This document shows, piece by piece, positions 4,767 to 44,330 of a stretch of 64,000 bases of DNA. The position numbers and the translations under genes were made by a program. The stretch covers positions 20,404 through 84,403 of the forward strand of contig JAUSKF010000004.1 of assembly GCA_030646995.1 (NCBI GenBank), in the 5' to 3' direction. This stretch comes from a bacterium. GTDB taxonomy: Bacteria > Patescibacteriota > Minisyncoccia > UBA6257 > WO2-44-18. Below the pieces are notes generated by a model, which saw only the letters and a list, made by a program, of their open reading frames with translations, did no database searches and was not told the DNA's origin. Each line of letters begins with the position of its first letter. Positions within the stretch are counted from its first letter, which is position 1.

Positions 4767-5465
4767 ATGAGACTGCACAGATTTATCGGCGATTTCGATT
4801 TATCGAAAGAATATTTAAAAATCAGCGACCGAGATTTGGTAAACCAGCTAAAGAACGTCTTCCGCCTAAAAACCGGCGATGAAATTCTACTTGGAGACGG
4901 AAAGAAAAATGAAGCGCTGGCTTGCGTAGAAGAAATTTCCAGAGGAGCCGCGACTTTGATTATCAAGCGTACACAGGAAAATACCAACGAACCGGAAATC
5001 TATGGGATTCTTTATTGCTCGATATTAAAAAAGGAAAACTTTGAACTCGCCGCCCAAAAAGCGGTGGAGGCGGGAATCTCTGAAATAGTGCCGATTATCG
5101 GCCAGCGAACGGTCAAAACAGCGATCAATCTTCCTCGTTTAGAGAAAATAGTTAAAGAAGCGGCGGAGCAATCCGGCCGAGGAATTATTCCGAAAGTTCA
5201 CCCGACTCTATCTTTTGAAAAAGCCTTTGAGCATGCCTCAACGAATAACGCGAATATATTTTTCCGCCCCAGCGGATTGCCGATAGCCAAAATAAAAATA
5301 CTGCCCCCGAAAGTCGGCATCTTTATCGGACCGGAAGGTGGCTGGAATGAACTGGAAACTGAATCAGCGGAAAAAAATCAATTTACTATGGCTTCTTTAG
5401 GAAAACTTATCCTCCGAGCAGAAACTGCGGCCTCGATTGCCTCCTACTTGGTACTCAACCGATAA
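4767..5465 (+). CDS. rsmE: 16S rRNA (uracil1498-N3)-methyltransferase RsmE
   Basis: MRLHRFIGDFDL... N-terminal PUA-like region plus C-terminal SPOUT domain; ORF 4650..5465 trimmed to the first ATG after upstream gene stop. Confidence 0.75.
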   Translation: MRLHRFIGDFDLSKEYLKISDRDLVNQLKNVFRLKTGDEILLGDGKKNEALACVEEISRGAATLIIKRTQENTNEPEIYGILYCSILKKENFELAAQKAVEAGISEIVPIIGQRTVKTAINLPRLEKIVKEAAEQSGRGIIPKVHPTLSFEKAFEHASTNNANIFFRPSGLPIAKIKILPPKVGIFIGPEGGWNELETESAEKNQFTMASLGKLILRAETAASIASYLVLNR

Positions 5466-7865: not shown

Positions 7866-8708
7866 ATGCCAATAATAGGTGCACACGTATCAACCAATGG
7901 AGGGCTTTCTAAATGTTTTGAAAACGCTGCGGCGATGGGAGCAAAGGCTATCCAAATTTTCGGATCCTCGCCCCAACAGTGGTTCACCAAAATGCCGACT
8001 GCGGAGGCAATACAGGATTTTACTTCTAAAAAAACCAATGCCGGCTCGCCACCGGTATATCTGCACGCCGGCTACCTGGTCAACCTAACAAGCCCAAATC
8101 CCATCAACCGAGAAAAGTCCATTAAGAGCCTCGCCGAGCATTATCAGATAGCCCAATCCCTGAATGCCGAAGGCTTAATTTTCCATCTTGGTTCTTTTGG
8201 AGAAGAGGGCCACGAAAAAGGCCTAAAAAATCTGATTTCCGGAATCCGCGAAGTTTTAAAAAAGGTTCCGGGAAACGCCCGCCTAATATTAGAAAACAGC
8301 GCCGGGGGGGGCAATAAATTAGGAAAAACCCTGGAAGAGCTGGCGGAAATCTTTGAAGGCGTGAATTCACCAAGGGCTAAGTTTTGTTTCGATACGGCGC
8401 ATGCCTTTGAAGCCGGAATGATCGGATATGAGTCAGCGAAAAAAGTTGAAGAATTCTTCAACCTCTGGGATAAAAAAATCGGCATCGGTAATATCGAAGT
8501 CCTGCACTCCAATGACTCAAAAACTATTTTTGAATCACATAACGATAGGCATGAAAATATCGGGCAGGGCGAAATTGGAAAAAAGGGATTCACAAATTTA
8601 GCGAAGGAAAAAAGACTGCACGGCAAGGTATGGCTGCTGGAGGTTCCGGGCGAAGATGACCGGGGGCCGGATAAAGAAAATATTGAGAAACTGAAAGCGC
8701 TGTTTTAA
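7866..8708 (+). CDS. nfo: Endonuclease IV (AP endonuclease family 2)
   Basis: MPIIGAHVSTNGGL...AIQIF.., conserved Nfo metal-binding His/Asp/Glu pattern; contains a G8 tract at 8305-8312. Confidence 0.85.
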   Translation: MPIIGAHVSTNGGLSKCFENAAAMGAKAIQIFGSSPQQWFTKMPTAEAIQDFTSKKTNAGSPPVYLHAGYLVNLTSPNPINREKSIKSLAEHYQIAQSLNAEGLIFHLGSFGEEGHEKGLKNLISGIREVLKKVPGNARLILENSAGGGNKLGKTLEELAEIFEGVNSPRAKFCFDTAHAFEAGMIGYESAKKVEEFFNLWDKKIGIGNIEVLHSNDSKTIFESHNDRHENIGQGEIGKKGFTNLAKEKRLHGKVWLLEVPGEDDRGPDKENIEKLKALF

Positions 8709-20207: not shown

Positions 20208-20798
20208 TCATTCGGTTGGGAGACCAGCTGAAGTCTCGGGTGCCGCTGGGGGTGGACCAACCTCGGCGGGATTTCTTAATTTTGATATCAGGCTCTGGAA
20301 TTTTTCATAATCAGGTAAATCTTCAACTCTGGCCACGCCCAAAAACTTCAAAAGCTCGAAGTTAGGCTTATACAAATAAACATTCCCCCTCTTCGGGTCA
20401 GGATAACGCTCCACAAGCCCTCGGATAGAAAGATTCCGCAAGCTGAAGCTGGAATTGACGCCTCGGATATAATCCAGCTCTGCGCGAGTCATCGGGCCGG
20501 CATAAGCGACGATGGAAAGCGTCTCTAGGGCGGCCGGTGTCAGATTTTCCCGCAATTCTTCTTTCATCACTGTCTCCAGCAAAGAAGAGAAGTCTGGCTT
20601 GGTAGTTAGTTGAACTTTTTCTTTATCGTAAACCAAAAAAAGTCCGCGATTCCCGGCCTTCAACTCTTCCGCTAATTTCTTAAGCGCCGCCTCTACATCT
20701 TCTTCAGAAGCCTTTAAAGTTTGTGCAATCTTTTTTAAACCAATTGCATCTCCGTAGATAAAAAGTAGCGCCTCAATTTTAGCTATTATTTCAGCCAT
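20208..20798 (-). CDS. scpB: Segregation and condensation protein B
   Basis: Winged-helix ScpB pattern (LEALLFIYGD...TLSIVAYAGPMTRAELDYIRGV); start trimmed to MAEIIAKIE inside ORF 20208..20846; Pro/Ala-rich C-terminal tail. Confidence 0.8.
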   Translation of the reverse strand: MAEIIAKIEALLFIYGDAIGLKKIAQTLKASEEDVEAALKKLAEELKAGNRGLFLVYDKEKVQLTTKPDFSSLLETVMKEELRENLTPAALETLSIVAYAGPMTRAELDYIRGVNSSFSLRNLSIRGLVERYPDPKRGNVYLYKPNFELLKFLGVARVEDLPDYEKFQSLISKLRNPAEVGPPPAAPETSAGLPTE

Positions 20799-33557: not shown

Positions 33558-33566
33558 GTATTTGAC

Positions 33567-33600
33567 AAAAAAACTAGCTAGAGTATGATAAACGAGTTCG
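33567..33600 (+). promoter_or_regulatory. Sigma70-like promoter for RRM gene
   Basis: TTGACA-16nt-TATGAT, ~65-nt 5'UTR. Confidence 0.4.
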
Positions 33601-33663: not shown

Positions 33664-33942
33664 ATGGCAAAGAAATTGTATGTTGGTAACTTGCCTTACA
33701 GCGCTAACGACGAATCTCTAAAGGAGATGTTCGCAGCTGCTGGCAGCGTAGAGTCCGCTACCATTATCATGGATCGCGCCACTGGCCGGTCAAAGGGCTT
33801 CGGTTTCGTCGAGATGACGAATGACGAGGAAGCTACTAAAGCTATTGAAATGTTCAATGGCAAAGATATGGGTGGTCGCGCTCTCACTGTTAACGAGGCA
33901 CGTCCAATGGAGCCCCGCGCTCCTCGCGAGTCCCGCTACTAA
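33664..33942 (+). CDS. RRM-domain RNA-binding protein
   Basis: RNP-2 LYVGNL and RNP-1 KGFGFVEM; terminator hairpin at ~33957-33992. Confidence 0.8.
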   Translation: MAKKLYVGNLPYSANDESLKEMFAAAGSVESATIIMDRATGRSKGFGFVEMTNDEEATKAIEMFNGKDMGGRALTVNEARPMEPRAPRESRY

Positions 33943-33971: not shown

Positions 33972-35105
33972 TTATCGGAGCGGTTTTTGGTTGCAGAACA
34001 CCCTACATCTTTCGGCCAGACAGCTTCTCGGAAACAGAATAACTTTTCTCCTGCGGAAAAGTTTTCTTCGCTCTCGGCGGTTGTTCGTTCGATTATATAA
34101 ACGAACGAACCAAGCCCAACCGCCTCCGAGATGTTCCTCAAACCAATCTGACCGAAAGATGGGTACTTCCGTCGACGGAAGTAATAAATTTAGCCTCGCT
34201 TTTATTTTATTCGCGTTCCCATGCCCCAACATCCCCAAATATGACTGCCGGGATTGCTCATTTGGATTCTCTTTCAATCTCCGGAACATTTTCCACTTTG
34301 TGACGAAGCGAATAACCCTATGATCCGGGAAATGCACCCAGCCGAGAAAATCCACTCCCGAAACAAGGGTCTTCAGAAATAACTTGTCTTTGTGAATGAA
34401 TAATTTGAGATTCTCCTCAAGGAAATCCTGAATTTTCGGGATTATTTCCACAAGTCGTTCCTTGTCCGGAGACAAAAACACAAAGTCATCGGCGTATCTT
34501 ACGTAATGTCGGGCTTTGAGTTTATGCTTCACGAACTGGTCAAATTGATTCATATAAACATTAGCGAATAACTGGGAAGTGAGATTGCCGAGGGGCAGAC
34601 CAAAACCCGGCTTGGTGGAGAAACTACTTATGACATTCTCTAACAGCCAAATTATTTTCTGGTCGGGAATATATGCCTTCAGAATTTTGAGAAGAATCTG
34701 ATGATTAATGCTGTCAAAAAACTTTTTGATATCACACTTTAATACCCAGCAGGTTTTGGTGTGATTTTTGCTAACTTTATATGCTATCGCTCGGAAACGA
34801 TTAAGCGCTCGATGGGTTCCCTTTTTGATCCGGCAGGAAAACGAATCGGCAAAGAAAGTTTTATCAAAAAATGGATAAAGCAATCGGTGAATGGCGTGAT
34901 GAACGAGACGATCGCGAACTTCCGCCTTGTGAATGATGCGTGGTTTGGGGTCGGCGATTCGGAATTGATAATAGCCGCCGTGACGGTATCTTTGACTTGC
35001 CAACTCCCCGTGAAGCGATAGAATGTTATCCATAAGATTGAAACCGAATTCCTGCACATCCTTTTTACCTCGCTTCCCCTTCAAGAATTCCTGCCAAGCA
35101 ACCAA
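33972..35105 (-). CDS. Diversity-generating retroelement reverse transcriptase
   Basis: RT motifs incl. YADDFVF (motif C), GNLTSQLFANVY (DGR-type motif 4 with SQ), VDFLGW; N-terminal region colinear with Bordetella-phage-type bRT; last ~60 codons read through repeat element B and are probably not genuine. Confidence 0.85.
   Translation of the reverse strand: MVAWQEFLKGKRGKKDVQEFGFNLMDNILSLHGELASQRYRHGGYYQFRIADPKPRIIHKAEVRDRLVHHAIHRLLYPFFDKTFFADSFSCRIKKGTHRALNRFRAIAYKVSKNHTKTCWVLKCDIKKFFDSINHQILLKILKAYIPDQKIIWLLENVISSFSTKPGFGLPLGNLTSQLFANVYMNQFDQFVKHKLKARHYVRYADDFVFLSPDKERLVEIIPKIQDFLEENLKLFIHKDKLFLKTLVSGVDFLGWVHFPDHRVIRFVTKWKMFRRLKENPNEQSRQSYLGMLGHGNANKIKARLNLLLPSTEVPIFRSDWFEEHLGGGWAWFVRLYNRTNNRRERRKLFRRRKVILFPRSCLAERCRVFCNQKPLR
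34014..34140 (+). repeat. Structured ~125-bp repeat element, copy B; overlaps 3' end of RT ORF on opposite strand
   Basis: ~90% identical to copy C (48568-48704 reverse complement) and core-identical to copy A. Confidence 0.7.
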
Positions 35106-35166
35106 AAGATTTTCAATAGAAATTATATCCTCAAAACTATGACGGAATTGAATTCTACCTATAACG

Positions 35167-35176
35167 CCCCCCCCCC
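35167..35176. repeat. Homopolymeric C10 tract in divergent RT/avd promoter region
   Basis: ACGCCCCCCCCCCAGCC between RT start (35105) and avd start (35191). Confidence 0.8.
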
Positions 35177-35190
35177 AGCCGATTTTTCCG

Positions 35191-35532
35191 TTGTTGCATA
35201 AAATAAAAGATGCTTACGCGCTTTGGTATTCCTACTACCAGATTCTACCAAAAACCCACCGCTACTCGCTCGGCCAGAAAATTGACTCTCTTTTTGTAGA
35301 AATTATAGAAACCGTGGCTGCTGCCGGCTTTATCGCCAAGGAAAAGAAGCTGGCATATTTAAGTTTGGCGATTATGAAAGTAGATACGCTAAAAGTTTTG
35401 ATGATGGTTCTCTGGGAGAATAAATCGCTGAACGATAAAAAATATATTCAAATATCTTTTAAAATAAGCGAACTAGGAAAAATGCTTGGCGGCTGGCTGG
35501 GAAAGATTCAGAAACAAAACTCTCCCCGCTAA
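35191..35532 (+). CDS. avd: Avd-like accessory variability determinant (four-helix-bundle protein, TIGR02436-like)
   Basis: 113 aa, basic helical protein with pattern resembling 23S-IVS/four-helix-bundle family; divergent to RT and adjacent to TR. Confidence 0.65.
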   Translation: MLHKIKDAYALWYSYYQILPKTHRYSLGQKIDSLFVEIIETVAAAGFIAKEKKLAYLSLAIMKVDTLKVLMMVLWENKSLNDKKYIQISFKISELGKMLGGWLGKIQKQNSPR

Positions 35533-35544
35533 AAAGCGGGGAGA
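35521..35544. other. GC-rich hairpin flanking TR (DGR hairpin/cruciform candidate)
   Basis: CTCCCCGCTAAAAAGCGGGGAGAG; avd stop codon lies in loop. Confidence 0.6.
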
Positions 35545-35555
35545 GAAATAGATAG

Positions 35556-35690
35556 ATTTGCGACGACCGAACACCCAGACGTTGTCGGGATTCCAGAAGT
35601 TGTCAGCGTTGCCGTTGTTCGCGTTGAGCCAATGCTCATCGCTATTATGCTCCACGTTGAACACGTTCGGGTTGCCGTTCGAGTCAGTTA
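35556..35690 (-). repeat. DGR template repeat (TR), Asn/AAC-rich
   Basis: ~135 bp; coding-strand reads ...NGNPNVFNVEHNSDEHWLNANNGNADNFWNPDNVWVFGRRK; 24 of 25 mismatches vs VR lie at TR adenines. Confidence 0.85.
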
Positions 35691-35935
35691 TATATAAGAG
35701 GCTGCCTATGCCACCGCCCATTGAATACTCTCTGGGTTGTATCGAATTCCGTACCTAAAGTACGATAGCCTCTTATACCAAGTATCTCTATTTTTTTAGA
35801 GTTCTGCGCGCGCCACTCTATCTCCAACCTTGATCAGAAACACACTCGACACGCGGATACTGGATTCGGCAGCAAGGAACCTTAGTCCCCCGCGTATTCG
35901 CCTAATACCAAAATTATATTAACATACGCTAAAAA

Positions 35936-35970
35936 CAAAAACCCCCGCGCTCGAAAGCGCGGGGACAAAG
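35936..35970 (-). terminator. Intrinsic terminator after DGR target gene; doubles as VR-proximal hairpin
   Basis: CCCCCGCGCTCGAAAGCGCGGGG with T-run on minus strand. Confidence 0.65.
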
Positions 35971-36008
35971 AGTCAAAGGGCCAGGTCAAAAGTTCCAAGG
36001 ACTAAGAG

Positions 36009-36764
36009 CTACTTGCGACGACCGAACACCCAGACGTCGTCGGGATCCCAGAAGCGGCCAGCGTCGCCGTCGCTCGCGTGGAGCCAATGCCCACCGCCAT
36101 CCGGCTCCACGCAGAACACGAACGGGTAGCCGCTCGAGTCAGAAATCGGCTCCATTCCGACCAGAATCCATTCCCCGTAAGGCTGGTCCTGGTATTGGAG
36201 GCGGAGCTGGGGGCCGACTTCGGCAGGGCAGCGATCCAAGCCAAGCTCTTTGGCTTCGGCGTAGATCTGCTCGCGAGTGCCGCCACTGGGAAGTCCCAGT
36301 TGGGCGACCGTCATCTTGACCAGATCGATCTCTATCTCCTTGGGGTTGACCGAGATCTTTTTCAGAATGTCGTTGCCCCAGTCAGAGACCCGGTTTTTCT
36401 TGCCGATGATGGCCTTTCGGAGAGCCTCCGGAGACGGATGCGTTCCCAGCTTGAGGGTCTTCCAGACAGGAAGAGCGGAAGAGCATCGAATCGGCTTGAT
36501 CTCGCCAACCCTGGCAATCGCCTGGTCGATTCGGTCGCAGAACTGCTGAAGTCCGGTGATTTTTTCACCGAGCTCAGAACGAAGCACCTCCAAATCATTC
36601 TTGTGTGCCTGCTTCGCTTCCGAAAGCTGGTTTTCCAACTCTCCGATTTTCTTCACCTCTTCCTTGGCCTCCTCGCAAACTTTCGTCAAATCCCCACTCA
36701 AGTCGACGTCTTCTTCAGACTTCTTTTTTCCGCTCACCGGAGCTCTCCTGAATTGGGTTATCAA
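36009..36764 (-). CDS. DGR variable (target) protein: N-terminal coiled coil, C-terminal ligand-binding domain ending in VR
   Basis: C-terminus ...GYPFVFCVEPDGGGHWLHASDGDAGRFWDPDDVWVFGRRK encoded by VR; perfect TTGACA-17-TATATT promoter upstream. Confidence 0.8.
   Translation of the reverse strand: MITQFRRAPVSGKKKSEEDVDLSGDLTKVCEEAKEEVKKIGELENQLSEAKQAHKNDLEVLRSELGEKITGLQQFCDRIDQAIARVGEIKPIRCSSALPVWKTLKLGTHPSPEALRKAIIGKKNRVSDWGNDILKKISVNPKEIEIDLVKMTVAQLGLPSGGTREQIYAEAKELGLDRCPAEVGPQLRLQYQDQPYGEWILVGMEPISDSSGYPFVFCVEPDGGGHWLHASDGDAGRFWDPDDVWVFGRRK
36012..36147 (-). repeat. DGR variable repeat (VR)
   Basis: Matches TR over ~135 bp with adenine-specific substitutions (AAC->AGC/TAC/TTC/GAC/CAC etc.). 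Confidence 0.85.
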
Positions 36765-36803
36765 TTTTTATCCGCCGAATAGCGGATTTGTGAACTGCCG
36801 TAA

Positions 36804-36832
36804 ATATAGCAGAGTTGAGGCTATTTGTCAAC
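36804..36832 (-). promoter_or_regulatory. Sigma70 consensus promoter of DGR target gene
   Basis: TTGACA-17-TATATT on minus strand; paralogous promoter at 38407-38436. Confidence 0.6.
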
Positions 36833-36862
36833 CCCAACCTTTGGCCCTCCTTAGGGGGCAAC

Positions 36863-36950
36863 GGGGGGGGATATTGACTTAGTCCAAATGGAACGCTATA
36901 ATGGGGATACTAAACGTGAAGGGCATCCTATATGGGTGCCCTTCGTTTTT
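36863..36950 (+). promoter_or_regulatory. G8 tract + TTGACT-17-TATAAT promoter followed immediately by intrinsic terminator (tiny transcript unit)
   Basis: G8 36863-36870, -35 36874-36879, -10 36897-36902, hairpin GAAGGGCATCCTATATGGGTGCCCTTC 36918-36944 + T6. Confidence 0.5.
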
Positions 36951-37573
36951 TATTCCATTTTTATACGCTCTCTAAGATATTCGAAGTCCCTGAAATCACT
37001 GCCTGCAAACTGCTTGATTTCTTTAGCAGTCCTCGCTCCTCTACCTAAAACCACAACCTCTTTCTTCTCAGATCGAAGATGTTTCAATACGGGAAGGAAG
37101 TCTCCATCGCCTGACAAAACAAGAACTCTATCAAAATTGTCTTTTTCTCTCATTAAGTGAAAGGCCATATCCACATCACAATTAGCTTTTCTTTTTGTGG
37201 AACCGTCATCTTGGTTATATAGCTTTACTGGTTTAAGAAAAAGTTTGTATCCGAACTTCTCAAGACGAATATAGAATTTAACTCTTTGAAGATGTCTACT
37301 GATTAAAGCGAGCTGCGCTTCATTGAGCTTCCTGTCTTTGTTCTCGGGTAGCTGTCTCAAATACTTCTCTAGCTCTTTTAGAGGAACGGTCTCATTGGAT
37401 TGGTAATCATATGGAAATTCATAAATTTCCACGCCGCCAAAATAAAAAACCGTATCTACTCCATATTTTTCTTTTAGATACTCAAGGAGTTTTTTGTAGT
37501 CTATTTTCCAACCTAAACTCTTTTCGCCGCCATAAAAAAGATTGGATGCATCCACAAAACCATATGCTTTCAT
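36950..37573 (-). CDS. NYN-domain (LabA-like, PIN-fold) ribonuclease
   Basis: GFVDASNL..., ANCDVDMAFHLM, VLSGDGDF motifs of PF01936; AT-rich, sandwiched between the two DGR target paralogs. Confidence 0.7.
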   Translation of the reverse strand: MKAYGFVDASNLFYGGEKSLGWKIDYKKLLEYLKEKYGVDTVFYFGGVEIYEFPYDYQSNETVPLKELEKYLRQLPENKDRKLNEAQLALISRHLQRVKFYIRLEKFGYKLFLKPVKLYNQDDGSTKRKANCDVDMAFHLMREKDNFDRVLVLSGDGDFLPVLKHLRSEKKEVVVLGRGARTAKEIKQFAGSDFRDFEYLRERIKME

Positions 37574-43925: not shown

Positions 43926-44255
43926 TCAACTGATGAACTTTCGTGCACTGCGAATCCACGGCCTTTTTTCTCTGTGTCCATTCTGACAAGACGAAAGATT
44001 GACGAGCAATTTCTTAGCCAGCATGTCCACGGGTGTCGCCAGGAAACGCTTCAAAATATTAAGACGATTTTGCAGATGAAGACTGCGACCTTCCGGCAAC
44101 GGCTCGGGGGTAATCATCAAATTTGATCCCCGATTCGTCGCAGAGTGATCCCGCAAAGCTTTACGCATTTCATGGGATCGAGCGTAAACCTTCATTCCTC
44201 TTCGATTCGCCCAGCCTTTCTTGAGAACTGATCCTTCGCCGGGAAACTGCAGCAT
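43926..44255 (-). CDS. Hypothetical basic protein downstream of rplL
   Basis: 109 aa ORF bracketed by two terminators; no recognisable family. Confidence 0.3.
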   Translation of the reverse strand: MLQFPGEGSVLKKGWANRRGMKVYARSHEMRKALRDHSATNRGSNLMITPEPLPEGRSLHLQNRLNILKRFLATPVDMLAKKLLVNLSSCQNGHREKRPWIRSARKFIS

Positions 44256-44295
44256 CCGTTTCTCCTTAATTTGAAACCGAAAAGATTATAAATCA

Positions 44296-44330
44296 AAAAG
44301 ACCCCACAGTCAAGGGGGTCTTTTTGATAG
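44296..44330 (-). terminator. Intrinsic terminator after rplL
   Basis: AAAAGACCCCACAGTCAAGGGGGTCTTTTTGA. Confidence 0.7.

Follow-up and report, generated by a model that had tools for sequence, protein, structure and literature searches.

What is an uninterrupted run of ten cytosines doing exactly between two divergent genes, one of which encodes a mutagenic reverse transcriptase (RT)? The question is raised by a diversity-generating retroelement (DGR) in a 64,000-nucleotide stretch of a Patescibacteriota contig (JAUSKF010000004.1 of assembly GCA_030646995.1, forward-strand positions 20,404–84,403), which we call the window and whose own numbering is used throughout. The tract is a simple-sequence repeat at 35167–35176, at the divergent junction of avd and the RT, and reads C10 on the plus strand and G10 on the minus strand, in the sense of the RT. 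A preliminary description of this DNA had placed it correctly between the two genes, had added a G8 run at 36863–36870, and had taken both for slipped-strand phase-variation switches in promoter regions. We find that the tract belongs to a repeat that is conserved at this site, nearly confined to it and variable in length among relatives, and we put the odds at about even (roughly 0.5) that in this lineage it would act as a switch setting the frame of the RT, with the assembled G10 as its 'off' allele.

The nature of the locus itself is clear. Profile and homologue searches identify the RT as one of DGR type (RVT_1, E = 1.6e-26), with DGR-type RTs of Patescibacteria (candidate phyla radiation, CPR) as its closest homologues. 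The RVT_1 match, an alignment of 120 homologues and frame analysis give it an open frame at 33972–35166 on the minus strand, or 33972–35105 if counted from a TTG codon. The product of avd (35191–35532, plus strand, divergent from the RT) is bAvd-like (E = 2.2e-12, a match above the Pfam cut-off), and the first canonical start of this gene, a TTG, lies 14 nt past the C tract. The template repeat (TR, 35558–35687, minus strand) and the variable repeat (VR, 36013–36142) form a 130-nt pair of 84% identity, in which 20 of the 21 mismatches coincide with adenines of the TR as read on the RT strand (minus), and the VR lies at the 3′ end of the target open reading frame (ORF; 36009–36737, minus strand, GTG start at 36737). 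The locus is a DGR by every feature tested: the RT, Avd and the adenine-specific TR/VR pair.

C10 is the only G/C run of at least 10 nt in the 64 kb, where a third-order Markov model predicts 0.02. Under the same model, G/C runs of at least 8 nt number three against 0.73 expected, and A/T runs of at least 8 nt are about five-fold depleted (6 observed, 28 expected). Long homopolymers are generally avoided by this genome and the DGR-adjacent G/C runs stand out all the more; the third G/C run, a G8 at 8304, encodes in-frame Gly codons within an ordinary gene. An assembly artefact is ruled out, as the tract is internal to contigs of many projects and sequencing eras, and the Logan assembly of SRR13727527 (possibly built from the same reads as the window) is 100% identical, with C10 and G8 both of the same length. 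The assignment of C10 to a promoter region did not hold: no promoter consensus spans the tract, which here lies inside the open RT frame.

A repeat kept at the avd/RT junction

Relatives were gathered by exact-protein look-ups, a scan of GTDB species genomes (80 loci) and a pattern scan of metagenomes, in which 17 of the 20 matches were unrelated G6–7 runs and three were true junctions. A G run of at least 6 (range 6–14, mode 9–10) is found upstream of the RT in 74 of the 83 entries having upstream DNA, and (GA)n or (CT)n stands in its place at the same site in five more, so that one or the other type of repeat is present in 79/83. The gene avd is divergent from the RT and adjacent to it in 81 of 82 loci, and the lone co-directional avd (L060) comes without a tract. 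The 559 kb surrounding 85 loci contain 72 G/C runs of at least 8 nt, 67 of which are the junction tract itself; the other five are at the junction of L030 (two), at the target-operon and avd starts of a second DGR in L056 (two) and at the G8 of the window (one). Conservation of the flanks is low (<0.8 bit), so it is the repeat that has been maintained. Judged by these comparisons, C10 is this genome's copy of a repeat built into the avd/RT junction of Patescibacteria DGRs.

The kind of repeat can be exchanged. In four loci of a Microgenomates-type clade (L046, L057, L068 and L086) (GA)10–16 replaces the G tract, ~20–90 nt upstream of the RT core, and is read as ERERER within the RT frame, while L012 has (CT)n plus an ATG of its own. 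Since the repeat type is swapped at the same site, the comparison suggests selection for being a repeat rather than for a given sequence.

Two loci account for most of the remaining runs. L056, a metagenome-assembled genome labelled Saccharibacteria, carries downstream of its first DGR a second, co-directional one made up of a peptidoglycan-binding gene, an Lcl_C target, avd and RT. Its target operon starts with G10 TATAAT AATAGA ATG (L056:3404–3413) and its avd with G10 TGATAT TTTTCT ATG (L056:5253–5262); G tracts therefore mark other DGR transcription-unit starts too. The junction of L030 (~4800–4900) reads G17, then a run of N, then C51, and is probably a failure of scaffolding or assembly at the repeat, the tract being able to break assemblies.

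Tract alleles in near-identical DNA

The length of the tract differs between contigs that are otherwise almost the same. L112 and L114, with 2 substitutions in 4,988 bp, have G11 and G9, and L113, 99.8% identical to L112, has G9. L003 and L095 differ by 2 substitutions in 4.2 kb and have G10 and GGTG8, respectively; L093, with ~8 differences from L003 in 2 kb of avd-RT, has G9, and these last three all come from one groundwater site. By our estimate, the chance of a given 10-bp stretch differing is ~0.5% per pair for L112/L114 and L003/L095. Because lengths differ between contigs that are 99.8–99.9% identical, the junction tract in relatives is hypermutable. RT clusters at 90% identity likewise contain several tract alleles in their predicted N-terminal extensions. 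One such cluster holds ...HSCGGGN, ...HSCGGGGN, MTGSTPAGGGN and MTGSTPAGGN, and in a cluster without a downstream start extended and frame-broken, truncated forms occur in about equal numbers.

The proposal of slipped-strand switching at C10 is thus borne out at the level of the family, where the tract is conserved, specific and of different lengths in near-identical contigs; this genome itself shows one allele only. Comparison of strain assemblies, suggested earlier as a way to see length polymorphism, shows the C10-type tract varying among relatives, with both C10 and G8 unchanged in the Logan assembly.

The sole indel outside the tract in the L112/L113 alignment (L112:763, L113:1820) is an AC in TTTAC(AC)CACC, between the target gene and avd. 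In these three loci avd is called only as 40–46-aa fragments (L112:1107–1369, L113:2287–2427, L114:2103–2243) next to an intact RT, and may be frameshifted or decayed.

Translation frame upstream of the RT core

What would a change in length do? In the window the RT frame runs on through the tract, which it reads as Gly-Gly-Gly, toward start codons that overlap the 5′ end of avd in antisense. Of the canonical starts in frame, TTG 35105 comes first, and the NCBI annotation counts 377 aa from it. This codon lies inside a conserved N-terminal motif, xIQLxHxFEDIISxENLL (FEDIISIENLL in the window), found across ~120 homologues, and initiation there would lose part of the motif. The sole nearby ATG, at 35199, is out of the RT frame by 1 nt with G10. 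It opens a 14-codon ORF (35155–35199, minus strand, +1 nt off the RT frame) that encodes MQQRKNRLGGGRYR and ends at TAG 35157–35155. Since the tract is itself part of the open RT frame, its length determines the frame of ATG 35199: in silico, G9 and G12 fuse this ATG to the RT frame and give RTs of 408 and 409 aa.

The same arrangement recurs in relatives. Fourteen of 68 loci, the window included, have no canonical start after the tract, and at least five clades besides that of the window have such start-less RTs. All 14 keep an open RT frame across the tract, compared with 41 of the 54 loci that do have a downstream start. Within the subclade of the window, L003, L004 and L092 have the upstream ATG in frame with the RT (ORFs of 336–345 aa), and it is off by the same +1 in the window, L005, L008, L089, L090 and L091, where the short ORF stops 6–12 nt past the tract. 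L092 and L089 form a toggle pair: in both, the ATG precedes the tract by 46 nt and the peptide upstream is ...SDLANFRWGGG, L092 with G10 having an in-frame ORF of 345 aa and L089 with G11 having ORFs of 15–20 codons. L003 (336 aa), set against L093 and L095, provides a second toggle set. Across the repeat of the (GA)n clade no stop interrupts the RT frame for 37–59 codons, and in three of the four loci an in-frame ATG, 25–36 codons upstream of the conserved core, reads through the repeat.

Two further ways of starting translation were considered. ATT as the start of the RT (AGA ATT CAA, 'RIQF') is weakened as a candidate by L090, which has ACC at this position, and by L091 and L069, which have ATC. 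The idea that avd is read through the C tract, beginning on its other side, is not supported, as no in-frame start is consistently present there (9 of 55 loci).

Mechanism and alternatives

We propose that the repeat would sit at the 5′ edge of an RT that has no start of its own downstream, and that its length would decide whether ATG 35199 is in frame. The G10 allele would be 'off', its translation ending after 14 codons at the TAG. Loss of one G or gain of two, through slipped-strand mispairing in replication, would then produce the 408- or 409-aa RT, and RNA polymerase slippage on the run could perhaps yield the same product. The mutagenic RT would be made in only a fraction of cells or transcripts, so that the tract would be a stochastic switch on a diversity generator. 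Initiation at the upstream ATG, frequent and reversible switching, and control of DGR activity by that switching are inferred here. For the wider statement, that a hypermutable repeat is an integral and conserved control element of Patescibacteria DGRs which slips the RT, and possibly Avd, on in a subpopulation, one hypermutation device gating another, we would give slightly less than an even chance.

Contingency loci with G/C tracts near the 5′ end of the coding sequence include the poly-G genes of Campylobacter jejuni and pilC and the lgt genes of Neisseria. The tract resembles these in being a G/C run of ~8–13 near the 5′ end of an ORF, with a peak length of 9–10, where a change of ±1 toggles the frame, and in the coexistence of in-frame and out-of-frame alleles in close relatives. 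It differs in that the gene is a DGR RT, a mutagenesis engine and not a surface structure, that the hosts are Patescibacteria, that the tract is exactly at a divergent junction and upstream of the start codon in most members, and that reversible high-frequency switching is here a prediction. The window has a run exceeding the 7–8 G/C typical of such loci at the 5′ edge of the RT frame; length polymorphism is found in relatives, this genome being represented by one allele in two assemblies that possibly share reads. A contingency-locus repeat is what the tract most resembles, and membership in this class is partly established, by tract and position here and by polymorphism in relatives only.

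Several observations weigh against the frame-setting switch. After the tract, 54 of the 68 loci have an ATG, GTG or TTG, in most cases an ATG at a distance of 13 or 19 nt (MKIQL...), and setting the frame is therefore not the general role of the tract. The uniform +1 offset fits programmed slippage or coincidence equally well, and the frame statistics come from perhaps 4–6 independent clades. In 31 of 55 loci avd has no canonical start between the tract and a conserved Pro, so non-canonical initiation may be normal at the junction. G10 is found in 8 of 11 entries of the subclade of the window, whether the ATG is in frame or not, and therefore something besides frame may set the length. Finally, some variant alleles come from assemblies of only 4–12x coverage, and the tract of this genome is known at one length, 10, in the window and in a Logan assembly that may share its reads.

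The alternative that survives best is that the tract works at the level of transcription or of the 5′ leader, its length tuning RT and/or avd via promoter spacing or leader structure, the frame relations being incidental; we consider this unlikely, if by some way the most serious of the rivals. There are precedents for promoter-spacer repeats: (TA)n lies in the overlapping divergent promoters of H. influenzae hifA/hifB, and poly-G lies between −35 and −10 in N. meningitidis porA. As there, a single repeat is placed in a short control region between divergent genes, so that co-regulation is conceivable, and the tie of the tract to the divergent gene arrangement speaks for such a role. So does its position in the 54 loci with a downstream start, where it would act only before the start of translation. 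In one subclade of 9 loci the tract is directly upstream of a −10-like box, in the order G(n)-TAGAAT-7 nt-ATG. This order is compatible with TAGAAT being a −10 box, the tract being part of the spacer and the mRNA being leaderless; counted by eye, TGGYAA and TAGAAT are 16–18 nt apart in 7 of 8 loci, with G runs of 8 to 13. The same layout of G10, −10-like box and ATG precedes the target operon and avd of the second DGR in L056. In the window, however, no promoter consensus and no −35/−10 pair brackets the tract, and neither C10 nor G8 lies between a −35 and a −10 box. Nor is the −10-like box a family-wide feature: a TANNNT box right after the tract is found in 12 of 69 loci, equal to the shuffle mean, and flank length does not compensate overall for tract length. 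We therefore reject a general promoter-spacer model on these two counts and keep it for the one subclade. An action on transcription or the leader also leaves translation of the RT unexplained in the 14 loci without a start codon.

A second alternative, programmed recoding, would give constitutive low-level RT from the upstream ATG by RNA polymerase slippage or a ribosomal +1 shift, with the DNA allele unchanged. All out-of-frame lineages in the subclade of the window need the loss of one nucleotide, equivalent to a +1 shift, and need the same correction despite a different tract length (L089, G11) or a different distance to the ATG (14, 17, 23 or 31 nt); in each of them the zero-frame ORF stops 6–12 nt past the tract. 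Runs of at least nine identical bases are recognised slippage sites, and a G-rich, Shine-Dalgarno (SD)-like run shortly before an in-frame stop resembles the +1 frameshift site of prfB. Both prfB, with its programmed +1 frameshifting, and the transcriptional slippage of Thermus dnaX and of insertion sequence (IS) elements share with the junction a G-rich or homopolymeric run, a zero-frame stop close behind it and the need for a one-nucleotide correction. Yet the G run is followed by CGT TAT AGG TAG in the window and by CGT TAA in L005, L089 and L091, an arrangement only loosely like prfB in which no slippery codon was identified, and transcriptional slippage is best documented on A/T runs. Unlike in these systems, in-frame and out-of-frame lineages coexist here, three lineages of the same subclade combining an identical G10 with an in-frame ATG, and the tract varies in populations at the DNA level; the comparison is one of DNA sequences only. 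Recoding is for these reasons quite improbable as an account of the tract.

The least probable explanation, marginally behind recoding, is a tolerated mutational hot spot of no regulatory role, with RT and avd starting at downstream non-canonical codons and the location a by-product: canonical starts are often missing for both genes at the junction, a conserved ATT/ATC codon (R-I-Q-F) follows AGG/AGA in many start-less loci and modal length is independent of frame, but ~90% conservation or dinucleotide replacement at one precise site, across phylum-level diversity and with near-absence elsewhere, is hard to obtain without selection, L090 has ACC instead of the ATT codon, and an open RT frame spans the tract in 14/14 start-less loci compared with 41/54 others.

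Possible implications for DGR control

How cells restrain and time DGR mutagenesis is an acknowledged open question, and a recent study still describes the regulatory mechanisms of retrohoming as unknown. Within a very large clade of DGRs, a repeat that is both conserved and unstable at the 5′ edge of the RT gene would be a concrete candidate for stochastic on/off switching of the RT and, if the frame-setting switch is real, a first natural mechanism regulating mutagenic retrohoming. It would also explain the N-terminally truncated annotation of many CPR DGR RTs, including that of the window (377 aa from an internal TTG), and bears on DGR surveys that sort such RTs as intact or degraded. We found neither a repeat at the avd/RT junction nor repeat-based DGR control in the DGR literature searched, coverage of which was partial, so that an earlier description is possible; Wu 2018 and Roux 2021 make no mention of such a tract. 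None of the described DGR cis elements (the initiation of mutagenic homing sequence IMH, IMH* and the GC-rich inverted repeat) corresponds to it (PMC5758913).

In organisation, the DGR of the window shares with that of Bordetella phage BPP-1 (mtd-avd-TR-brt) the RT, Avd, an adenine-specific TR/VR pair and a VR at the 3′ end of the target, and differs from it in that avd is inverted between TR and RT and in the repeat at the junction. As for the regulatory principle, phasevarions are controlled by repeats in mod methyltransferase genes. The junction tract would be alike in that a simple repeat switches an enzyme with wide downstream effects, here a diversifier of a target protein; the enzyme is a different one, and the output would be sequence diversification and not an epigenetic regulon.

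A second homopolymer near the target promoter

The G8 run (36863–36870) was placed correctly in the preliminary description, 3 nt (ATA) before the −35 box of a plus-strand promoter, and lies between two back-to-back promoters. The plus-strand one (36874–36902) consists of TTGACT (36874–36879), a 17-nt spacer and TATAAT (36897–36902); it had been called perfect, and with 11 of 12 consensus positions it is in fact near-consensus. The minus-strand promoter, that of the target gene, is TTGACA-17-(TG)CTATATT at 36831–36803, which confirms the back-to-back arrangement. The strong terminator described downstream of the plus-strand promoter is also present. A 13-pair stem at 36916–36946 followed by T6 (36916–36952, plus strand; −21.6 kcal/mol, z = −6.2) begins 13–15 nt after the −10 box and would limit the transcript to ~43–47 nt. 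This GC-rich stem-loop with its U run has the form of an intrinsic terminator on the plus strand; the minus-strand fold has −18.7 kcal/mol and a poor U tail (only ACGTTTAGTAT). On the minus strand the hairpin starts 4 nt past the stop codon of an NYN-domain gene (36950–37573, PF01936, E = 5e-18) that converges on this promoter-terminator unit.

Is G8 then a switch? With the run 3 nt upstream of the plus-strand −35 box and 31 nt upstream of the minus-strand one, it is outside both spacers and a slip would alter neither −35/−10 spacing. As a conserved DGR feature it fails, since no relative has a counterpart, L003, L005 and L008 among them having none upstream of their targets. In these three loci the target promoter, the hairpin in the 5′ untranslated region (5′UTR), the SD and the first codons are kept, and homology of the cassette ends a few nucleotides upstream of the target −35 box; G8 and the unit therefore lie in lineage-specific flank. 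By this comparison they are not part of the junction repeat element but specific to the flanking DNA of this lineage. Its length is also unchanged in the Logan assembly, and a phase-variation switch at G8 is not supported, although some role for it is possible given how rare G/C runs of at least 8 nt are outside DGR unit starts in the 559 kb.

What the unit does can be answered only tentatively. The plus-strand promoter is probably real, as judged from its match: the window has four matches of at least 11/12, compared with 1.4 expected by chance, and the other three are correctly placed upstream of an RRM-domain gene, the target gene and ORF 43926–44255 (with an AAGGAG SD). The reading we favour, at somewhat less than even odds, is that a ~45-nt RNA ends at the hairpin and that promoter and hairpin shield the convergent NYN gene from antisense transcription out of the target promoter region, G8 being passive. 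The quality of the promoter, with all three of its peers in the window driving genes, and the strength of the plus-strand terminator would fit such a shield, as would the hairpin 4 nt past the NYN stop, which would serve as the NYN terminator as well, and the location of run and unit in DNA flanking the cassette. Against it, chance alone would produce ~1.4 promoter matches this good in the window, and the adjacency of other long G/C runs to DGR unit starts leaves G8 a possible role of its own. There is also no homologous region in which conservation could be read, the hairpin does not recur in IMG/VR, and the 5′ tail of the ~45-nt RNA has no convincing trans target within the window. Rfam covariance models reach the gathering score in the window only for two tRNAs and assign no known RNA family to any part of 35000–37100; the best match over the unit is SprD, with 17.5 bits against a gathering score of 100. 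The suggested 'tiny sRNA' or 'insulator' thus stays conjecture around a promoter and a terminator that are both there, a true small RNA or a chance promoter match being possible alternatives. We also considered, as a candidate only, that hairpin and T6 were once the terminator of the RRM gene (33664–33942), parted from it by DGR insertion.

Neighbouring elements

The DGR is flanked by Obg, a 92-aa RRM protein and the NYN-domain gene. The RRM gene (33664–33942, plus strand) has its near-consensus promoter at 33562–33589, directly after obg. Antisense to it runs the C-terminus of the RT ORF, ~45–60 aa longer than in homologues (377 versus ~330 aa; 33972–34145, minus strand), an extension that is probably read-through into the flank beyond the cassette end.

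A terminator-like hairpin directly follows the TR on the minus strand (35545–35520). On the opposite strand its 5′ arm extends over the final avd codons, and because a U tail follows it in the TR/RT sense (TTTTGTTTCT), the TR RNA is probably a discrete terminated transcript apart from the RT mRNA, in which it would differ from the avd-TR-brt arrangement of Bordetella. A terminator also follows the target gene, at 35966–35941 (minus strand).

The 5′UTR of the target mRNA contains, between promoter and SD, a small hairpin of the form CCGC-loop-GCGG (36768–36792, minus strand). It is conserved across the subclade, with counterparts in L003, L005 and L008 whose loop and flanks have changed in sequence, and may serve to regulate or stabilise the target transcript. 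Farther away, at 44285–44330 on the minus strand, the terminator hairpin of the upstream gene (GACCCC...GGGGTC and a T run) contains in its loop the −35 box (TTGACT) of a near-consensus promoter, a compact overlap of terminator and promoter.

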